Below, piece after piece: positions 9,708 to 64,000 of a stretch of 64,000 nt of DNA. The position numbers and the translations under genes are program-made. Numbering within the stretch: position 1 is the first letter of the stretch; every line of letters starts with the position of its first letter. The DNA is taken from NCBI GenBank assembly GCA_037146775.1, contig JBAWWL010000002.1:21935-85934 (forward strand). Reading direction: 5' to 3'. The notes under the pieces were generated by a model. That model was not told where the DNA came from. It worked only from the letters and a program-made list of their open reading frames with translations, and ran no database searches. The DNA is from Candidatus Omnitrophota bacterium (GTDB lineage Bacteria > Omnitrophota > Gorgyraeia > Duberdicusellales > 4484-171).

Positions 9708-12700
9708 ATGGAACACAATAATTCTAATCGTGCTCAATTTCCCGAGGTAGTGGTGGTGGAGGCTTCTGCCGGATCCGGCAAAACGTATGCCCTCGCCAAG
9801 CGCTACCTAGAGCTTCTCATCAACCCTTCTTTGCAGGCTAACCGTATCCTTCTACGTAATATTCTCGCCATCACCTTTACCAACAAGGCTACCGCAGAGA
9901 TGAAAGAAAGAATCTTGGAGTTTTTGAAACGTATCGCCTTAGATGCTTTTGAGGACAAGGAGCAGGAAAAAGAAATTATATGCGCTCTCGGGGTAGATAA
10001 GAAATTGGCCCGTACGCTCGCCAACGATATTATGGAAGAGCTTACCAACAATTACACTTTTTTCCAGGTGCAGACTATTGATAGTTTCATTAATGCTCTT
10101 CTTTTGGGCTGCGCGTTCAATATCGATCGCTCAGCGCGTTTTAAGATTAAGCAGGATTACACTCAATATCTGGCGTATTGCCTGGATGCTGTTATTGACC
10201 TGGCGGCGAGCGATACGCGTATTTTGAAACTTCTTGAAGAGTTCCTCGATCACTACCTCTTCGTGGAAAACAAAAATTCATGGTTTCCTAAAAAAGATAT
10301 TCTATCTTCCATCCAGTCTCTTTTTAAATTACGCAATAAATATGGAGGATCTTTATGCCATTATCAATATAAAAGCCAGGATATTATCAAACAGAAGACT
10401 ATTGTCTTTGATGCCATTCGTCAGCTGTCGCCGGATATCCCGGAAGATTTAAACGGTACCGTAAAAAAATCTATCGTCAGATTTATTGAAAAGGATAAAC
10501 ATGTTTTTGAACTTAAGAGCATCCCCGATAGTTTTAGGTACGCCGATGTCCCGATGAAAAAAGGCAAAATTTCTCCGCCCGCATTCCAACGGCAATGGGA
10601 AGCTATTCATCGGGCAATATGCGTTTTGGTAGAGCTTGATGCAAAGGCTGCCTATGGCCCCTACATCGGGCTTTTTGAAAAAATAGTACAGTGTTTTAAC
10701 GCAATCTGCAAATACGATGATATTTTATTTCTCGGCGAATTAAACTCAAAAGCCAGATTATTATTTTCGGAACAGGGTTTAACTATTGCGGAATTATATT
10801 ACCGCATGGCTACCCGTTTCAGCCACTACCTTATTGATGAATTTCAGGACACAAGTAAATTGCAATGGAAAAACTTGGAAGAAATGGTGAGGGAGGCTAT
10901 TTCAACCGGTGGCTCTTTATTCTATGTAGGCGATAAAAAACAGGCGATATACCGTTTTCGAGGGGGAGAAGCCGAGCTATTCGATGAAGTAAAGGAAGAA
11001 TTCCGTGATTATGTAAAGTTTCATAGCTTGAAGAAAAACTGGCGCAGCCATAAAGCTATTGTTGCCTTTAACAATGAAATATTTTCCAGAGAGAACCTCG
11101 AGCGGGCCGTAACGGCTATGGATATAGACGATGATGCCGGCTCGCGCGAAGAGTTGCTCAAACGTATGCAGAATGTATTTGCCGATGCTCATCAGGAGTG
11201 TAGTCCGGATAAACCATTCGGTTATGTGGCTATAGCGCGTATTGAGGAGAGTAACAAGGAAGAGCGTAACCAAATAGTGAAAGAGAAGATACTTGCGTTA
11301 CTTAAGAAATTACGCGAGCGCTTTTCTTACAAAGATATTGCTGTCCTCTGCCGCGATAACGACGAGGTGGAACTTGTTACTTCCTGGCTTCTGGAGGTGG
11401 GGGTACCGGTTGAATCTGAAAAAACGCTAAGCATAGAAGAAAATGCTTTAATACAGGAACTTGTCTCTTTTTTGAGGTTTCTCTATTCTCCCATAGATGA
11501 CCTTAGTTTTGCTTCCTTTATATTGGGCGATATTTTTGCGACCGCTACGGGAATCAACCGGCAGGATATGATCGATTTTGTGTTTCGGTTGCGCAGGCAA
11601 AGAGTGCATAATACCGATGCAAGTTTGTATAGAAAGTTACGCGAGGCCTATCCGCAAGTTTGGGAAACTTATATCGATGAATTCTTCAGGGGCGTTGGTT
11701 TTGTCTCGCCCTATGAGTTGGTAGTTAGTATTTATCAGCGCTATCGCGTTATGGCGCGATTTCAAGATCATCAGGCATTTTTTATGAAATTTTTAGAACT
11801 GTTAAAGCAGCAAGAAGATGAATGCGCTGGTTTAGGGGAAATGCTCGCTTACTTCGACAATGCGTCGAAAGAGGATTTATATATTAGTGTGGATGAAACC
11901 GATTCTGTGCATGTGCTTACGATCCATAAGTCGAAAGGCTTAGAATTTGGCGTGGTGGTGACGCCATTTTTGAGAATTGATATTGATGCTGAAACGGGAG
12001 AAATTCCCGGCTCGTATGTCACCCAGGAAGACAGTGGTTACGGTTTGGTGCGTATCACCAAAGAGCATAGAAAGTATTCAGAAAATTTGCGGCATATCTA
12101 TAAAGAAGCGTACATAAAAGCCTGCCTTGATGCTTTTAACAGTTTATATGTTGCGCTTACGCGGTCAAAATTCGAGCTGTATATTTTTATTCCCAAAAAA
12201 AGTAAAAATGCGCCCAATAAGGCACGTTGCTTGATACCGGAGGCGATTGTAGAATGTGGAGAAATGATTACCTATGATATCAAAAAAGGGAAAAGCCGTC
12301 CTACACCCATTATGCCGCCTTCCGATTATCGCGATTGGCTCCTGGGGATGCGGGATGAATTTGGCGATGTTCGTTCGTTAAAATATCGTGGCAAGATCCT
12401 CGAAGGCAATATCCTGCATTACGCGCTTTCCTGTATTGGAGATTTGTCTAAGCAGGACAGGCCGGCTGCGATACAAAAAGCTCTCGAAGATACAAAAACA
12501 CAATATCCGTTCATAAAAGATCCTGCTTTGCTTTCCCAGAAAATAACCCATCTTTTGGATAAGGAAGAAATGAGGCCCTTTTTTTACCTACCTTGTGTAA
12601 AGCTTTACAGAGAAAAAGAGATTGTTACCGCAAGCGGCGATACTAAGCGCATAGACCGTTTCATCGTAAAAGAAGATAAGGTGTGGATTGTTGATTATAA

Positions 12701-56845: not shown

Positions 56846-56921
56846 CGGGAGCTAGCCTAACCCGGTTCAAGGCGCTTGGTTTGGGACCAAGAGATTGGCG
56901 GTTCAAATCCGCCGCTCCCGA
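56846..56921 (+). tRNA. tRNA-Pro (anticodon TGG)
   Basis: Manual fold: acceptor CGGGAGC/GCTCCCG, U8A9, anticodon loop UUUGGGA, T-loop TTCAAAT; 76 nt. Confidence 0.8.
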
Positions 56922-57042
56922 CTTATAATAGAAAAATTTTGCGAGGCGTTTTCTTAGCCGGAGAGATGCTCAAGATAATATTGTTTATCAAAGAACAAAG
57001 CATGTCCCGTGGAAAAAACAAGCATAAATGAGGAGGTGGGGT

Positions 57043-57507: not shown

Positions 57508-57782
57508 TCACTCGTTAGTATTAGCCTGCGCCCATAGTTTTCCGATAGCGTTTAATGTATCGGGAAGCGATTGAATATGCAATAGATTAGAAGTAATTTG
57601 ATATTTTGCGCCCGTAGCTTAATGAGCACATCATTTTTTCAAGCACGAAGTACGCAGTAAAAATGATAATGCGAATTAACCCCGCAGCGCTTCTTGTAAA
57701 TTTTCTGTGAAAATTTATGAGATATTTTAGGCGCAAGGGGTATGTGGTGTGATGATTGTGTTTCCCGTTCTTTAGAAAATTT

Positions 57783-57856
57783 GCGCCCGTAGCTCAATTG
57801 GATAGAGCAACTGCCTTCTAAGCAGTAGGTTGCGTGTTCAATTCACGCCGGGCGCG
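57783..57856 (+). tRNA. tRNA-Arg (anticodon TCT)
   Basis: Manual fold: acceptor GCGCCCG/CGGGCGC, D-arm GCTC-AATTGGATA-GAGC, anticodon loop CUUCUAA, T-loop TTCAATT; 74 nt. Confidence 0.85.
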
Positions 57857-57938
57857 TATAATTATTAGTGTTCGCTTGATATACTATTTTACGCCATAAA
57901 ATTCTTGATGTAGCACACAAAGAGGAGAGCAATATTCT

Positions 57939-59300
57939 ATGAGCCAAACGGACGGGAAAATCCTTCGTGATAAGAAATGGAGAGGCATCCTTGTTATTCT
58001 AGCTGTACTGGTGGTGTTGGTTGTGATGCTCCATGTCGGCCTCTTTATTTTTCTTAACCGCAATGGCAAAAACATTCTTATCCAGGCGGTAAAGAATAAT
58101 TTTGGTGTCGTATCGGAAGTAGAAAGCGTTTCTTTTCGTTTCCCCTTCACGGTAGTCGTGAATAATTTTAAATGCGGAGATTTATCGTTCGTTAAGGCGG
58201 ATGTTTCTTTAGGGGTATTCAACCCTTTTACTCATTATATCAATTTGCATAAGGTTTATGTGGATCGTCTTCGTTTAGGAATTAAGGTAGAAAAAGACAA
58301 GATACGTATTGAGCCGCTTTTAACCGAAAAACTTCATCCGGAGCAAACAGAAGAAAAGAATACGCAAGCATTGCCAATTGATAAGGCTGAGAAAATAAAA
58401 AAGCAAAACGTTTCTTTTCGTATCGGAAGATTCTACCTCAAAAATGCTTCGGTGGAAGTCACCGATGCCACCAAAGATGTGCCGATACATTTTATATTGC
58501 GCGATGTTAACCTCCAGGTTAAACGTTTTGTCTATCCAGAATTGGAGAAGTTTTATGCAACTTTTAATGCATCTTTAACGAAAGAAGGGCTTCTTCTCGA
58601 TAATTTAGTGGCTGTGCACGGATGGATAGATTACGCGCATCGGAATATGGATGTAAAGTTTGAGGTGAATAAGCTTGCTTATTCGGTTATTGCCCGGTAT
58701 CTTCCGCCCTTTTGGTATCCCGAAAACTTAGGCATTAAAGAGGGGTTTTTTTCTCTTGATGCAAGCTTTAAATCCGTAAAGAACGATTTGGTTGTCGATG
58801 GTGTTTTGTCCTTAGACCAGGTTGATTTTAATGAAATTCCGGAGAAAAAAACAAATTCCGATTTTTTACGTACCATTATCGCGCTTCTGAAAGGAAATAG
58901 CGAAAAAGCAACGCTTCCTATCCGGCTAAAAGCGAAAATGGATTCCTTTAAGCTTGATTTTTCCAGTTTGCAATCGGAATTTCAGAACAAAGTTAAGCTG
59001 GATGTGGGTACTATTATTTTTAAGGTGTTAGATAAAACAGCAAATAAAACAAAAGAAAAACCAGCCGAAGGTACTGGCACTATCGAAAAGATTACCGAAG
59101 AGGTAACAGTTCCAGTCAAAGATGCTGCTCCGGCAGCGAATTCCTCCAGCGAGGCCGTAAAACAGGCAGAGAATAAGATCGATAATGTTACTAAGCCCAC
59201 TGAAGAAAAGCAGGCGACAAGTGCTACTGAAGCCAAAACTAATAACCCGGTAGAGGAGAAGGCACGAGACCAAGGCAGTGCTGTTGTTCAGCCGCAATAA
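57939..59300 (+). CDS. Membrane-anchored hypothetical protein (AsmA-like/DUF748-like), low-complexity C-terminus
   Basis: N-terminal TM helix, 453 aa, Glu/Lys/Thr-rich C-terminal tail. Confidence 0.4.
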   Translation: MSQTDGKILRDKKWRGILVILAVLVVLVVMLHVGLFIFLNRNGKNILIQAVKNNFGVVSEVESVSFRFPFTVVVNNFKCGDLSFVKADVSLGVFNPFTHYINLHKVYVDRLRLGIKVEKDKIRIEPLLTEKLHPEQTEEKNTQALPIDKAEKIKKQNVSFRIGRFYLKNASVEVTDATKDVPIHFILRDVNLQVKRFVYPELEKFYATFNASLTKEGLLLDNLVAVHGWIDYAHRNMDVKFEVNKLAYSVIARYLPPFWYPENLGIKEGFFSLDASFKSVKNDLVVDGVLSLDQVDFNEIPEKKTNSDFLRTIIALLKGNSEKATLPIRLKAKMDSFKLDFSSLQSEFQNKVKLDVGTIIFKVLDKTANKTKEKPAEGTGTIEKITEEVTVPVKDAAPAANSSSEAVKQAENKIDNVTKPTEEKQATSATEAKTNNPVEEKARDQGSAVVQPQ

Positions 59301-59345: not shown

Positions 59346-59585
59346 ATGTGGCATGTTTATATCGTCAAAGGTAGTGAAGGCTGTTTATATACCGGAATAG
59401 CTAACAACTTAGAAAACAGAATTAAGCAGTACAATCGTGGCTGTGGTTGTAAGTTTACAAAACCTAGAATTCCTGTTACATTAGTATATTGCAAGTGGCG
59501 GTCTTCAAGGGGGCGCGCTTTAACCCGTGAAGCCGCGATTAAGCGTCTCACTAGAAACGAAAAGCTAGAGCTTATTGGCAAATAA
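59346..59585 (+). CDS. GIY-YIG nuclease family protein (UPF0213-like)
   Basis: YIVKGSEGCLYTGIANNLENRIKQYNRG...ALTREAAIKRL matches the GIY-YIG core. Confidence 0.75.
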   Translation: MWHVYIVKGSEGCLYTGIANNLENRIKQYNRGCGCKFTKPRIPVTLVYCKWRSSRGRALTREAAIKRLTRNEKLELIGK

Positions 59586-59690: not shown

Positions 59691-59768
59691 GGTGGGCGTA
59701 GCTCAGTTGGCTAGAGCCCTTGACTGTGGCTCAAGGTGTCGCGGGTTCAAATCCCGTCGCCTACCCCA
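59691..59768 (+). tRNA. tRNA-His (anticodon GTG) with encoded G-1 and CCA
   Basis: Manual fold: G-1 at 59691, acceptor GTGGGCG/CGCCTAC, anticodon loop CUGUGGC, T-loop TTCAAAT, discriminator C, CCA encoded. Confidence 0.8.
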
Positions 59769-61089: not shown

Positions 61090-61776
61090 ATGAGTATATT
61101 CAACAGATTTCTATTAGGTCTTGTCCTGGTGCTAACGTTAACTAGCCAGACATTATATGCCCAGCAAGGTGACGCTGACACAAAGAAACTCGCCGAGATC
61201 CGAGCTAAGGCCGAGAAAGGCGATGCCAAAGCCCAGTGGGAATTGGGTAAAGCATTCTCTAACGGCGAGTTTGGGCTGGAGAAGGATTGGCAGGAAGCGG
61301 TGAAGTGGATTCGTAAGGCCGCCGAACAGAATGACGCCGTTGCTCAAGATAGTCTGGGTTTTTGCTACAGATATGGCCAAGGCGTGGCGCAGGATACGGT
61401 GGAAGCGGTAAAGTGGTTTCGTAAGGCCGCCGAACAGAATGACGCTATGTCTCAATTCAACCTAGGTTGCTGTTATTACTATGGCACTGGTGTGGCGAAG
61501 GATGATGTGGAGGCGGTAAAGTGGTTTCGTAAGGCCGCCGAACAGAATTCTGCCCTAGCTCAAAGTAATCTGGGTGAATGCTACTTCAGGGGCATAGGTG
61601 TGGCGAAGGATATGAAGGAGGCCTACAGGTGGTTCTTGTTGGCCGCGGCACAAGGTGATGAAGATGCAAAGGGCCGCGTGAGGCATCTTGAAAAGAAACT
61701 GAAAAAGGATCAAATTGCAGAAGTAAAGAAACAAGTGGCTGAATGGACCGAACAGCACAAGAAAGCCACTAACTAA
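61090..61776 (+). CDS. Secreted Sel1-repeat (TPR-like) protein
   Basis: Signal peptide; four ~36-aa Sel1 repeats (EAVKWFRKAAEQNDA...LG.CY..G.GVA.D); 108-bp nucleotide repeats nearly identical. Confidence 0.75.
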   Translation: MSIFNRFLLGLVLVLTLTSQTLYAQQGDADTKKLAEIRAKAEKGDAKAQWELGKAFSNGEFGLEKDWQEAVKWIRKAAEQNDAVAQDSLGFCYRYGQGVAQDTVEAVKWFRKAAEQNDAMSQFNLGCCYYYGTGVAKDDVEAVKWFRKAAEQNSALAQSNLGECYFRGIGVAKDMKEAYRWFLLAAAQGDEDAKGRVRHLEKKLKKDQIAEVKKQVAEWTEQHKKATN

Positions 61777-61841
61777 AAGGAGTTGCCATGAAATTATCTT
61801 TACCAAGTTCTGAACCGCACCGCCTAACAAAATTCAGAGAA

Positions 61842-62954
61842 ATGATTGCTATGGGTTCCTTTTGCGTTTTATTAATATTGGGGATGTCTGGTTGTGCGAC
61901 ATTGTCGATTGACCCTATTACGGGGTTTACTCCGAATGAACAAGAAGGGGTCGTTTTTGGCCAGATGCAGCTTATGACCGATGGTAACCTTATTCGCTAC
62001 TATGGCGATATAGGTCTTTTAGGTATAAATTCTCCTCAGAGTATACTTACTTACATCTGCGCTTACTCTGATCCGAAATCGGTCAAATACGGACTGCCCC
62101 TAGGGGAACGAGCTTTCAAAACTCTGATAGCCGACGAAGGTTATTTTTCAGCCAAATTACCGGTGGGCAGATATTACATTAAAATGTTTGTATATTGTGT
62201 ACCTATAACGTGGCATTTTCCTCAAGGTTGGAGCACCTATGTGCCAGGTCCTGGTTTCAAGCAGCACGATCCAAAAGTTATCATTTTTGATGTTTTACCA
62301 AACAAGGCTACCTATATCGGAACATACATCCACCGATCAGACAGCGACAATGATCCGAAAAATACTACGGGGAGGATCCTTAAGTTGAGGGTCGTCGATG
62401 AATACGACAAATGCAAGGCCGTTTTTTTGGCTAAGTATCCGCAGGTGGGACAATCAGCTGTTTCAAGAATTGCCACGTTCATACCTTATGAGAACCAGAA
62501 GCAGAAGGCCAAGGACGTGAATTCTGCGGACCAAACGAAGAGGGCTCAGGCTAGTAAGGCCGCAATGGACGAGTTCAGCTCGGTGGCCAGCGCGGCCTCA
62601 ATCACGGCCGCCAATATCACCGCCGATCTTCGCGAAGCCGGGAATAAAACAACGAATAACGCGCCGGTATCGCCGGAGGCAAAAATGCGCGAAGTTCTGC
62701 GCGGTTACAAGATTGGCGTGACCACCTACAAGAAGTGTATGAGTGACGTAACGGCGGGGTCATGGGAAATGAATTTTGGTGGTATGGGAATGGAAGTGTT
62801 ATCGGGGAGAGTTACTCTGAGCATGGCCGTTGGCATCGGTGGACGCGACGTATGCGAGTTGGTATTCGAGGGCGATAATCCGCAACAAACTGGAACAGGA
62901 AAGACGCCCAACTTCGACAAATTCTTTTTGAAAGAGATTACATTCAAGCCATAA
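61842..62954 (+). CDS. Hypothetical lipoprotein
   Basis: Lipobox LGMSGC after the internal ATG (MIAMGSF...); the ORF-track start at 61788 is probably read-through. Confidence 0.5.
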   Translation: MIAMGSFCVLLILGMSGCATLSIDPITGFTPNEQEGVVFGQMQLMTDGNLIRYYGDIGLLGINSPQSILTYICAYSDPKSVKYGLPLGERAFKTLIADEGYFSAKLPVGRYYIKMFVYCVPITWHFPQGWSTYVPGPGFKQHDPKVIIFDVLPNKATYIGTYIHRSDSDNDPKNTTGRILKLRVVDEYDKCKAVFLAKYPQVGQSAVSRIATFIPYENQKQKAKDVNSADQTKRAQASKAAMDEFSSVASAASITAANITADLREAGNKTTNNAPVSPEAKMREVLRGYKIGVTTYKKCMSDVTAGSWEMNFGGMGMEVLSGRVTLSMAVGIGGRDVCELVFEGDNPQQTGTGKTPNFDKFFLKEITFKP

Positions 62955-63049
62955 GGGTTCTATAGATCGCGTCATAGGGATTTTTTGTATCGCAGCGGGG
63001 TTGTTCTTTTCTTGTTGTCGAGATATATTGCGCAATAAAAGGAGATGAA

Positions 63050-64000
63050 ATGTCGAGTCTTCTATGTAAACTCGGATTGCACGCGTGGGGAAAGTGTTCA
63101 GACCAACCAGGAAGGCACGACACTAAGCAGTGTGGCAGTGGTTGTTCTTGTAGCTGTATTCGAGAAGGCTGTGGGGCAACTCGCCATAAGTGGGGGCAGG
63201 GGTTTAGGCGCTGCGAATGCCTTCGCTTTCCTTGCCAGGCACGTAACCATATGTGGAATGGTTGTCAGTGTATCAACCCCGGGTGTGGCGGAAAACGCGA
63301 CGCGCAGCACGTCTGGGATGGATGCAAGTGTGTAACCTGTGGTAAAGAACGAGACGAAGGCCACAAATGGGATGGGTGCAAATGCTCAACTTGCGGTAAG
63401 GAGCGGGATGAAAGTCACCAATGGAAAGATTGCAAGTGCTCGATATGCAGGAAGACCCGCGAGCAAGAACACAACTGGGATGGATGTAGATGCGCAGTGT
63501 GTTTCAAGATACGTAATCAAGAGCATTCGTGGACTAATGGAAGATGCTCAAGGTGCGGGAAGTTCAACTTCTCGTCGCTTGAAGAGGCCCTTCCTTTTAT
63601 GAAGCAATACGAGAGCATGGAAATCTTCAAGAGGCCAGGGCTGATCTCTGCCATTACTGACCTCCACGCCTCCTGCGATGAAAATGCGAAGCGGCTGGTT
63701 ATCCAGGGGCTGCTTGACATCTTGCGCGTTCTTCCGTCACCGCCACTTGACGACGCCACCTTTTCGACCATCTGTGCTGCAATTGCAGCATTCGGATGCA
63801 TCGGCGATGATTCCTCAGAGGTTCTAGATTGTCTCGATTCGTTTGTCACACGAGATCCTAACTATCGTGCTATCGAGATTCTTGGTGAGCTCGCGGAAAA
63901 GTCAGATGCCGCATTGTCGCGACTCCTAGCTTGGCATCGCCGCGTTGATAAGGCACAGGTGGCTGGATACTCACTGATAAATATTAGACGTGAATCGATG
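63050..64000 (+). CDS. Cysteine-rich tandem-repeat protein (seven ~18-aa H-x-W-x-G-C-x-C-x2-C units) with helical C-terminal region; runs off the window end
   Basis: Frame-2 ORF from ATG 63050 (RBS AAAGGAG 5 nt upstream), open to position 64000 with no stop; absent from the ORF track because it has no stop in the window. Confidence 0.65.
   Translation, partial: MSSLLCKLGLHAWGKCSDQPGRHDTKQCGSGCSCSCIREGCGATRHKWGQGFRRCECLRFPCQARNHMWNGCQCINPGCGGKRDAQHVWDGCKCVTCGKERDEGHKWDGCKCSTCGKERDESHQWKDCKCSICRKTREQEHNWDGCRCAVCFKIRNQEHSWTNGRCSRCGKFNFSSLEEALPFMKQYESMEIFKRPGLISAITDLHASCDENAKRLVIQGLLDILRVLPSPPLDDATFSTICAAIAAFGCIGDDSSEVLDCLDSFVTRDPNYRAIEILGELAEKSDAALSRLLAWHRRVDKAQVAGYSLINIRRESM

Follow-up and report, generated by a model that had tools for sequence, protein, structure and literature searches.

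A widespread bacterial family of tandem Cys3His repeats, found through an Omnitrophota gene and predicted to form metal-held beads

The gene and its repeat array

This report concerns a gene at the end of a 64,000-nucleotide stretch of DNA from Candidatus Omnitrophota bacterium (the window, meaning the whole stretch that was analysed) and the tandem repeats, each with three Cys and one His (Cys3His), that this gene encodes. Reading frame 2 is open on the forward strand from an ATG at 63050 to 64000, where the window ends. These 317 codons without a stop exceed the longest open stretch in 2,000 mononucleotide shuffles (206 codons; mean 86). The frame and a ribosome-binding site 5 nt upstream had been reported in a first-pass annotation made from the sequence alone, and both were found as described. 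A scan of positions 62800-63150 detected no sigma-70-like promoter or intrinsic terminator. The features of the gene are listed here, with model confidence given as the AlphaFold2 predicted local distance difference test (pLDDT).

63038-63044, forward strand: Shine-Dalgarno-like AAAGGAG, 5 nt before the ATG (read from the sequence)
63050-64000, forward strand: coding sequence, codons 1-317 of 351; another 105 nt, stop included, lie beyond the window
63050-63097, forward strand: N-terminal cap MSSLLCKLGLHAWGKC, with a lone Cys 5 residues ahead of the first His (C-x4-H-x-W)
63098-63232, forward strand: decayed Cys-rich units, residues 17-61, with irregular spacing; pLDDT below 50 for residues 12-61
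63248-63307, forward strand: unit at His67, 20 residues, with a C-x4-C knuckle; pLDDT 72 (residues 61-70) and 92 (residues 71-80)
63308-63523, forward strand: four canonical 18-residue units (residues 87-104, 105-122, 123-140, and 141-158), H-x-W-x2-C-x-C-x2-C-x3-R; pLDDT 91-97
63524-63568, forward strand: C-terminal cap unit HSWTNGRCSRCGKFN, in which the first Cys is absent (H-x6-C-x2-C-G); same predicted bead fold
63578-64000, forward strand: residues 177-317 of a predicted all-alpha repeat (solenoid-like) domain that spans residues 177-351 (AlphaFold2)

Completion of the open reading frame (ORF) from downstream sequence had been suggested, and the stop was reached 34 codons past the window, giving 351 residues in total. 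The window protein is 100% identical to P0001, a 351-residue "hypothetical protein WCI77_01790" of Candidatus Omnitrophota bacterium. The identical protein is encoded on the NCBI metagenome-assembled contig CAZTHQ010000035.1 (L001; full gene at 10001-11056) and on an independent Logan contig, SRR12676968 (L002). A sequencing artefact is excluded for the frame because the exact protein is encoded in independent assemblies. The frameshift or interruption that the first-pass annotation had named beforehand as the threat to its reading did not occur. A pseudogene or chance ORF was ruled out by the identical frame in these assemblies and by the many homologues. The 351-residue ORF is a genuine gene of this bacterium, and its product is probably cytoplasmic. 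Two listed ORFs (63045-63335 and 63339-63602), rightly dismissed earlier as out-of-frame artefacts, lie in another frame and are contained within the gene. They stand in the ORF list only because ORFs that leave the window end go unlisted.

A regular-expression search placed H-x-W starts at residues 11, 46, 67, 87, 105, 123, 141, and 159. The protein is laid out as an N-terminal cap with decayed units (residues 1-61), six well-formed units (residues 62-173), and an alpha-helical C-terminal domain. The unit at residue 11 is degenerate, and residues 17-61 include CGSGCSCSC and most of a 21-residue unit beginning at His46. Seven consecutive units, each with three Cys at fixed spacing, had been described at the outset. 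This holds exactly for four of the seven, the canonical units of residues 87-158, which agree with the family consensus. The units at residues 46 and 67 (21 and 20 residues) space their Cys more widely, and the last unit, at residue 159, has only two. In the AlphaFold2 model, the His67 unit shows the same strand pattern as the later units. The first 175 residues hold 27 Cys and 9 His. No further Cys3His copy was found in the 64-kb window, which contains this one only.

The repeats had also been described as encoded by 54-bp nucleotide repeats, a signal that proved weak at the DNA level. Tandem Repeats Finder reported 2.1 copies at 75%, and the four perfect units have 29-38 of 54 bases in common. 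A recent tandem duplication of DNA was ruled out, as the units are only 54-70% identical in DNA. Judged from their sequences, the repeats are old and kept by selection at the protein level.

The helical region noted after the repeats was borne out by the model, in which ten helices are predicted over residues 177-346 (pLDDT about 63-81, or about 70 for the domain taken together). The best Foldseek matches of this domain were weak (expectation value, E, of 0.2-1) and included designed helical repeats, MIF4G, TPR, and ARM structures. The ten predicted helices would stack much as in HEAT, ARM, and TPR solenoids, and relatives of the window protein carry true HEAT, TPR, or ankyrin repeats in this position. 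The domain itself differs from these in that it matched no Pfam repeat family. When the domain alone was searched against 5.8 billion proteins, a single homologue was returned (P0012, 271 residues), which is 66-69% identical to the window protein's C-terminal domain and has no Cys3His array. In place of the array, P0012 has a short N-terminal C-x2-C...C-x2-C zinc ribbon, and a C-terminal zinc ribbon and a transmembrane helix are added. In P0012, the modules around an orphan domain have clearly been shuffled.

A family of Cys3His arrays across bacterial phyla

A word-index search returned 81 relatives, and every source name that came with one is "hypothetical protein" or "Ankyrin/HEAT repeats." The window protein matches family members with E of 2e-49 or better. 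A profile built from 74 members was scanned against 1.84 billion representatives of clusters at 50% identity. It matched 3,576 proteins at E<=1e-3, of which 1,904 reached E<=1e-10 and 434 reached E<=1e-30. The degenerate DNA pattern for H-x-W-x-G-C-K-C-x2-C-G-x2-R was found at no fewer than 120 loci (at least 120) in species-representative genomes, where about 0.3 matches would be expected by chance according to our own arithmetic from pattern degeneracy and collection size. Among the matches listed, nearly all records are labelled as metagenome-assembled or uncultured. The lineages of these listed matches include Christensenellales, Oscillospiraceae, Bacteroidales, Verrucomicrobiota, Planctomycetota, Dehalococcoidales, Anaerolineae, Syntrophorhabdales, Acidobacteriaceae, Desulfobacterota, Nitrospiraceae, Armatimonadota, a Candidate Phyla Radiation (CPR) lineage, and Omnitrophota. 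The same pattern matched once in 2.9 million viral contigs, and the motif is therefore not phage-associated.

The consensus unit is H1-x-W3-x-G5-C6-x-C8-x2-C11-G12-x2-R15-x3. Across 246 units of 18 residues, conservation is 100% for His, 97% for Trp, 93% for Gly5, 100% for each of the three Cys, 77% for Gly12, and 97% for Arg15. The His-to-His period in the 81 proteins is 18 residues in 241 cases, 20 in 98, and 24 in 34. Their constant core is C-x2-C-G-x6-H-x-W, and the variable parts are the spacing from His to Cys6 (4, 5, or 8 residues) and from Cys6 to Cys8 (1-3 residues). One unit of P0003 has a Cys in place of the His. The 81 relatives carry 2-14 copies per protein, and giant proteins carry more than 20.

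The arrays are placed and capped in a characteristic way. Of the 81 proteins, 57 have an array that begins at residue 6-11, and the array was N-terminal in 94 of 118 genes among the matches listed from the genome scan. With the array so close to the N-terminus, there is no room for a signal peptide in most members. Of 151 N-terminal arrays, 147 have a single Cys 3-5 positions ahead of their first His, and in 143 of these the distance is 4-5. At the other end, Cys6 is absent from 145 of 240 array-terminal units, compared with 13 of 1,124 internal units. The family was defined by at least two tandem units of H-x-[WFY]-x(2-6)-C-x(1-3)-C-x2-C-G-x2-R with a period of 18, 20, or 24 residues, an N-cap formed by a lone Cys that precedes the first His by 4-5 residues, and the lack of Cys6 in the last unit. 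All of these features are present in the window protein, with C6...H11 as its N-terminal cap and HSWTNGRCSRCG as its C-terminal cap at residue 159. The Cys at residue 6 is kept in at least 90% of family alignment A1. Around residues 80-95 of P0147 (...RIRCHFGFHDWDGC...), an N-cap-like C-x-F-G-x-H-x-W occurs inside the protein, where the array restarts after an interruption. This internal cap shows that the cap motif is independent of the true N-terminus.

The partners found C-terminal of the array vary and include ankyrin, HEAT, TPR, WD40, FGE-sulfatase, DUF1566 (PF07603), Fib_succ_major, and lectin-like domains, as well as many unknown ones. The array is thus a portable module, since its partners vary and the C-terminal domain also occurs without it in P0012. 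An unannotated helical repeat with the motif "...(I/L)TD(Q/P)xxLAx(I/V)A..." repeatedly accompanies the array and has at most a sub-threshold HEAT_2 match in Pfam. It is fused behind the array in the C-terminal parts of P0014, P0036, P0072, and P0075, and it is a separate neighbouring gene in seven loci (L085 and six others). A protein with similar helical repeats is also encoded 2.5 kb downstream of the window gene (L001 13566-14342). In a sub-family (P0054, P0063, P0070, P0073, P0074, and P0107), N-terminal transmembrane helices precede the array. Two of the first five are named Candidatus Cryosericum, and P0070 (VN417_01385) and P0074 (VN417_01380) have adjacent locus tags and thus are tandem paralogues.

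The family further includes giant or surface proteins of 1,000-5,500 residues (P0182, P0159, P0196, P0164, P0084, and P0089), which carry 8-25 variant units next to BspA-type leucine-rich repeats, Flg_new repeats, fn3, and SH3 domains. The variants include HTYDNACDSSCNVCGASRSTS, with a period of 21, and HNYIDGTCTICNHTCTSH, with the fourth ligand at position 15; in P0159 this ligand is shifted from position 6 to position 15. Because it is present in such proteins, the unit is used outside the cell too.

The first-pass annotation did not recognise the repeat as a described family, and every search made since agrees. In Pfam, the full protein had no match at E<=1, and the isolated array and the canonical and giant relatives gave only noise over their repeats at E<=10. 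NCBIfam returned nothing for the repeats in the protein, the isolated array, or the canonical and giant relatives. Neither the single protein nor a 35-column double-unit profile had a sequence match in the PDB at E<=10. The best Foldseek match of the array model had E of 0.74, and the insignificant matches were mostly zinc-finger modules (GATOR2, TFIIH, RanBP2/NZF, and LIM). No description of the Cys3His repeat was found in full-text literature searches. A match to a known family, named in advance as the other threat to the annotation's reading, thus did not occur in Pfam, NCBIfam, PDB, or Foldseek. The family is large, spans many bacterial phyla, and has no description in any domain database or solved structure.

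The predicted bead and its putative metal site

With the family alignment, the AlphaFold2 pLDDT was 91-97 over residues 71-150, 82-85 over residues 151-170, and below 50 in the decayed part. The array modelled alone (residues 62-176) reached a mean pLDDT of 92.3 and a predicted template modelling score of 0.70. In the model, all units including the last form two strands, at positions 3-4 and 7-8, together with a bridge at position 14, and the geometry from bead to bead is defined in the prediction. The unit is predicted to be a three-stranded bead in which Cys6 occupies the turn of the hairpin and C8-x2-C11-G forms the knuckle. The likeness to a miniature zinc knuckle or rubredoxin-like bead that had been suggested earlier fits the hairpin, the knuckle, and the third strand modelled in every unit, with metal binding as a putative property.

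Comparable minimal folds are known. The RanBP2/NZF ribbons and rubredoxin-like knuckles share with the predicted Cys3His bead a minimal beta-hairpin and knuckle, one metal, and a conserved Trp that packs on the site, and such domains (1n0z, 5af6, and 4xxb) are among the insignificant Foldseek matches of the array model. Those modules place four Cys, as a pair of C-x2-C knuckles, within about 25-30 residues, whereas the Cys3His unit has one knuckle plus Cys6 and His1 within 11 residues. Neither the RanBP2/NZF pattern W-x-C-x2-C-x3-N-x6-C-x2-C nor fold similarity to its solved members was found. From its sequence and model, the unit appears to work like a zinc knuckle or ribbon yet is outside every described family tested.

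The pattern of conservation fits a metal site with a mini-core. Within a unit, the loss of aromatic-3 goes with that of Arg15 (odds ratio 12.1, Fisher p 8e-17), whereas it shows no association with the Arg15 of the preceding unit (odds ratio 1.1, p 0.8); these p-values ignore the kinship of units, and the contrast with the control is clear. The covariation offers independent support from sequence for a self-contained bead running from H1 to R15. In three interrupted arrays (P0092, P0104, and P0204), one unit has lost its ligands and both neighbours keep all four.

How the ligands are grouped into sites can be read in several ways. A self-contained site of His1, Cys6, Cys8, and Cys11 would be favoured by the predicted bead fold, the covariation within units, and the three interruptions. 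A site that bridges units, with Cys8 and Cys11 joined by the next His1 and Cys6, would be favoured by its likeness to CCHC knuckles and by the near-constant x7 loop. Neither of these two registers fits the caps. With one additional Cys ahead of the first His and one Cys fewer in the last unit, the ligand count is exactly 4n for n units. The count would be balanced only by a chained register, with the previous Cys11 joined by His1, Cys6, and Cys8, or by an antiparallel dimer. In the chained option, neighbouring units would share a zinc ion, with Cys11 of unit k-1 and His1, Cys6, and Cys8 of unit k as its ligands. In the dimer option, two rods would lie antiparallel, and the N-cap Cys of one chain would complete the three-ligand C-cap site of the other. 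A fold and metal-site architecture not yet seen, namely a rod with chained, non-independent zinc sites, is thus a tentative proposal that falls well short of even odds. If it were true, bacteria would widely use a metal-stitched rod of tunable length as a building block, both on cytoplasmic adaptors and in giant surface proteins.

A probable adaptor scaffold, its rivals and its context

The array is best explained, with a probability of roughly 0.6, as a series of metal-held mini-beads that serves as a rigid N-terminal scaffold on an adaptor protein. Each unit of about 18 residues would form a tiny three-stranded bead in which three Cys and one His bind a single metal ion, most likely Zn2+, in tetrahedral geometry, and the Trp3/Arg15 packing pair would also stabilise the bead. 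Linkers of three residues would join the beads into a fairly rigid rod. In the window protein, the first units have decayed, leaving six well-formed ones. The rod would carry the C-terminal alpha-solenoid domain, in place of which relatives have ankyrin, HEAT, TPR, WD40, or lectin-like modules. The array is thus best understood as a portable structural scaffold or spacer, possibly oligomerising, for a protein-binding adaptor; an enzyme or a classic nucleic-acid binder would be a poorer reading.

Several observations weigh against this scaffold. The AlphaFold2 confidence is possibly inflated by repeat-derived alignments, and the model contains no metal; the kinship of units bears on the covariation in the way stated above. 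The caps are a misfit to one site per unit, as an extra Cys precedes the first His and the last unit has a His and two Cys. An alternative register reads C-x2-C-G-K-x5-G-H-x4-C, which resembles RNA-binding CCHC knuckles. No conserved neighbouring gene that points to a pathway was found among the family loci. Lastly, giant surface proteins that are clearly extracellular contain related units, and disulfides or another role are possible there.

The alternative register leads to a different proposal, in which the array would be a nucleic-acid-binding zinc-knuckle array. A site C8-x2-C11-G-K-x5-G-H1'-x4-C6' would bridge two consecutive hairpins, much as an extended retroviral or Nanos CCHC knuckle would. 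Contacts to single-stranded RNA or DNA would be made by the exposed Trp and Lys/Arg, with the C-terminal repeat domain serving to recruit partners. The units share with zf-CCHC (PF00098) their tandem arrangement at about 14-18 residues, three Cys and one His per putative metal, a conserved aromatic, and, in this register, Gly residues that follow the second Cys and precede the His. The pattern recalls the retroviral C-x2-C-G-K-E-G-H-x4-C and the second finger of Nanos, C-x2-C-x7-H-x4-C, with which the ligand spacing is identical. The spacing from Cys11 to the next His is nearly always x7, and rare units have the exact retroviral spacing (e.g., CVKCGTISHQWHEC of P0029). An aromatic residue and Lys/Arg are conserved, and zf-nanos (PF05741) was the only zinc-finger noise match in Pfam for the isolated array. 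That match scored 8.3 bits (E 3.7) against a cut-off of 27, and zf-CCHC was not matched by the protein at E<=1 or by the isolated array and canonical relatives at E<=10. The spacing in the window protein is C-x2-C-x7-H-x4-C, with a middle loop of x7 instead of the x4 of zf-CCHC (C-x2-C-x4-H-x4-C). An extra invariant Cys stands one residue before the next knuckle, so that the units would abut without a linker in this register. Further differences from zf-CCHC are the Trp at His+2, the invariant Arg15, the 2-14 units (more than 20 in giants), the mildly basic character, and the lack of a hidden Markov model match. Nanos has two non-identical fingers, no periodic array, and dissimilar surrounding residues. 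The net charge of the array, +0.85 +/- 0.57 per 18 residues, argues weakly against a basic nucleic-acid binder, as it compares with about +3.6 for the HIV-1 nucleocapsid protein. The covariation of Trp with Arg15 of its own unit suggests a buried structural pair and not base-stacking, the unit is also found in extracellular surface proteins, and 3+2 orphan ligands would be left at the array ends. This proposal is judged unlikely.

The wealth of Cys and His raises the possibility of a metal store, buffer, or redox module, either a metallothionein-like Zn/Cd/Cu sink or a series of iron or iron-sulfur sites with 3Cys-1His ligands, with the variable C-terminal domain serving localisation only. Metallothioneins share with the array a high Cys density, C-x-C and C-x2-C motifs, and a high potential metal load, which in the array amounts to about one potential site per 18 residues. 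The 3Cys-1His set is that of the mitoNEET-type 2Fe-2S ligands, and most hosts (Christensenellales, Oscillospiraceae, Bacteroidales, Dehalococcoidales, Syntrophorhabdales, and Omnitrophota) are apparently anaerobes by name. Metallothioneins have almost no aromatics, His, or regular secondary structure and bind metal in clusters. The Cys3His units, in contrast, have a strict period, an invariant Trp and His, strongly conserved Gly, Arg, and Asp/Glu beyond the ligands, and a confidently predicted regular beta structure with pLDDT above 90. Their spacing is unlike the CDGSH motif, genes for metal transport, regulation, or Fe-S assembly do not recur beside family genes, and the C-terminal partners are protein- or glycan-binding and not metal-related. 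A metal store is improbable on this comparison. Little weight, again, is given to the view that the units build extracellular stalks, as in the giant surface proteins, with disulfides or metal to stabilise them, and that the proteins with N-terminal arrays are exported without a classical signal peptide. Related units do fill proteins that bear signal peptides or are of surface type, such as P0182, in which an SH3 domain and about 25 units are combined with a membrane helix at the C-terminus, and P0196, with BspA-type leucine-rich repeats, Flg_new repeats, and an fn3 domain. At the C-terminus of some proteins with N-terminal arrays are the usually extracellular Fib_succ_major, DUF1566, or FGE-sulfatase domains, and the neighbours of the window gene encode a secreted-looking Sel1 protein and a lipoprotein-like protein. 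Against this, the array lies within about 10 residues of Met1 in most members, so that there is no hydrophobic leader, and an odd number of Cys (three) with an invariant His per unit fits metal ligation better than disulfides. Membrane-anchored members have an Arg/Lys-rich stretch between the transmembrane helices and the array, which suggests a cytoplasmic side, and no linked secretion genes were found.

The genomic neighbourhood of the window gene includes the following features.

56846-56922, forward strand: tRNA-Pro-TGG
57782-57857, forward strand: tRNA-Arg-TCT
57939-59300: DUF748 protein gene, between the tRNA genes
59346-59585: GIY-YIG protein gene (79 residues), between the tRNA genes
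59692-59768, forward strand: tRNA-His-GTG
61090-61776: Sel1-repeat protein with a signal-peptide-like N-terminus
61788-62954: upstream neighbour of 388 residues with no family match and a lipoprotein-signal-like N-terminus (...VLLILGMSGC...)

The three tRNA genes lie within 3 kb. The gene for the 388-residue neighbour follows directly after the Sel1-repeat protein gene and has two possible internal starts. A guanine-plus-cytosine (GC) content above that of the rest of the window had been noted toward the window end, and it was recovered as 0.475 for 60.5-64 kb and 0.516 for the ORF, compared with 0.422 +/- 0.016 in 2-kb bins over 1-60 kb. The GC-richer block (0.44-0.51 vs 0.42) starts about 0.7 kb after tRNA-His and extends at least 10 kb past the window (L001 to about 21000). 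It encodes the Sel1-repeat protein, the lipoprotein-like protein, two ankyrin proteins, TPR and helical-repeat proteins, and other unknowns, and the Cys3His unit was not found in its other proteins. The block may be a genomic island inserted at a tRNA. In a search for direct repeats, no 14-mer of tRNA-His recurred in the 11 kb downstream. Gene content rich in Sel1, ankyrin, and TPR repeats is often tied to interaction with other cells. Across the family, an all-against-all BLAST of 1,588 ORFs from about 105-120 loci found no recurrent partner family, with the exceptions of further array genes and the unannotated helical-repeat protein in its seven loci.

Small modules stabilised by metal on Cys and His are among the most useful and most studied building blocks of proteins. 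The family described here is abundant, with thousands of clusters in Bacillota, Bacteroidota, Verrucomicrobiota, Planctomycetota, Chloroflexota, Acidobacteriota, Desulfobacterota, Omnitrophota, and others. Defining it would annotate part of thousands of dark-matter proteins, giant surface proteins included. It would also give a new minimal metal-binding fold, with 18 residues per metal and an unusual cap logic, and a length-tunable rigid rod of this kind would be of interest to protein design.

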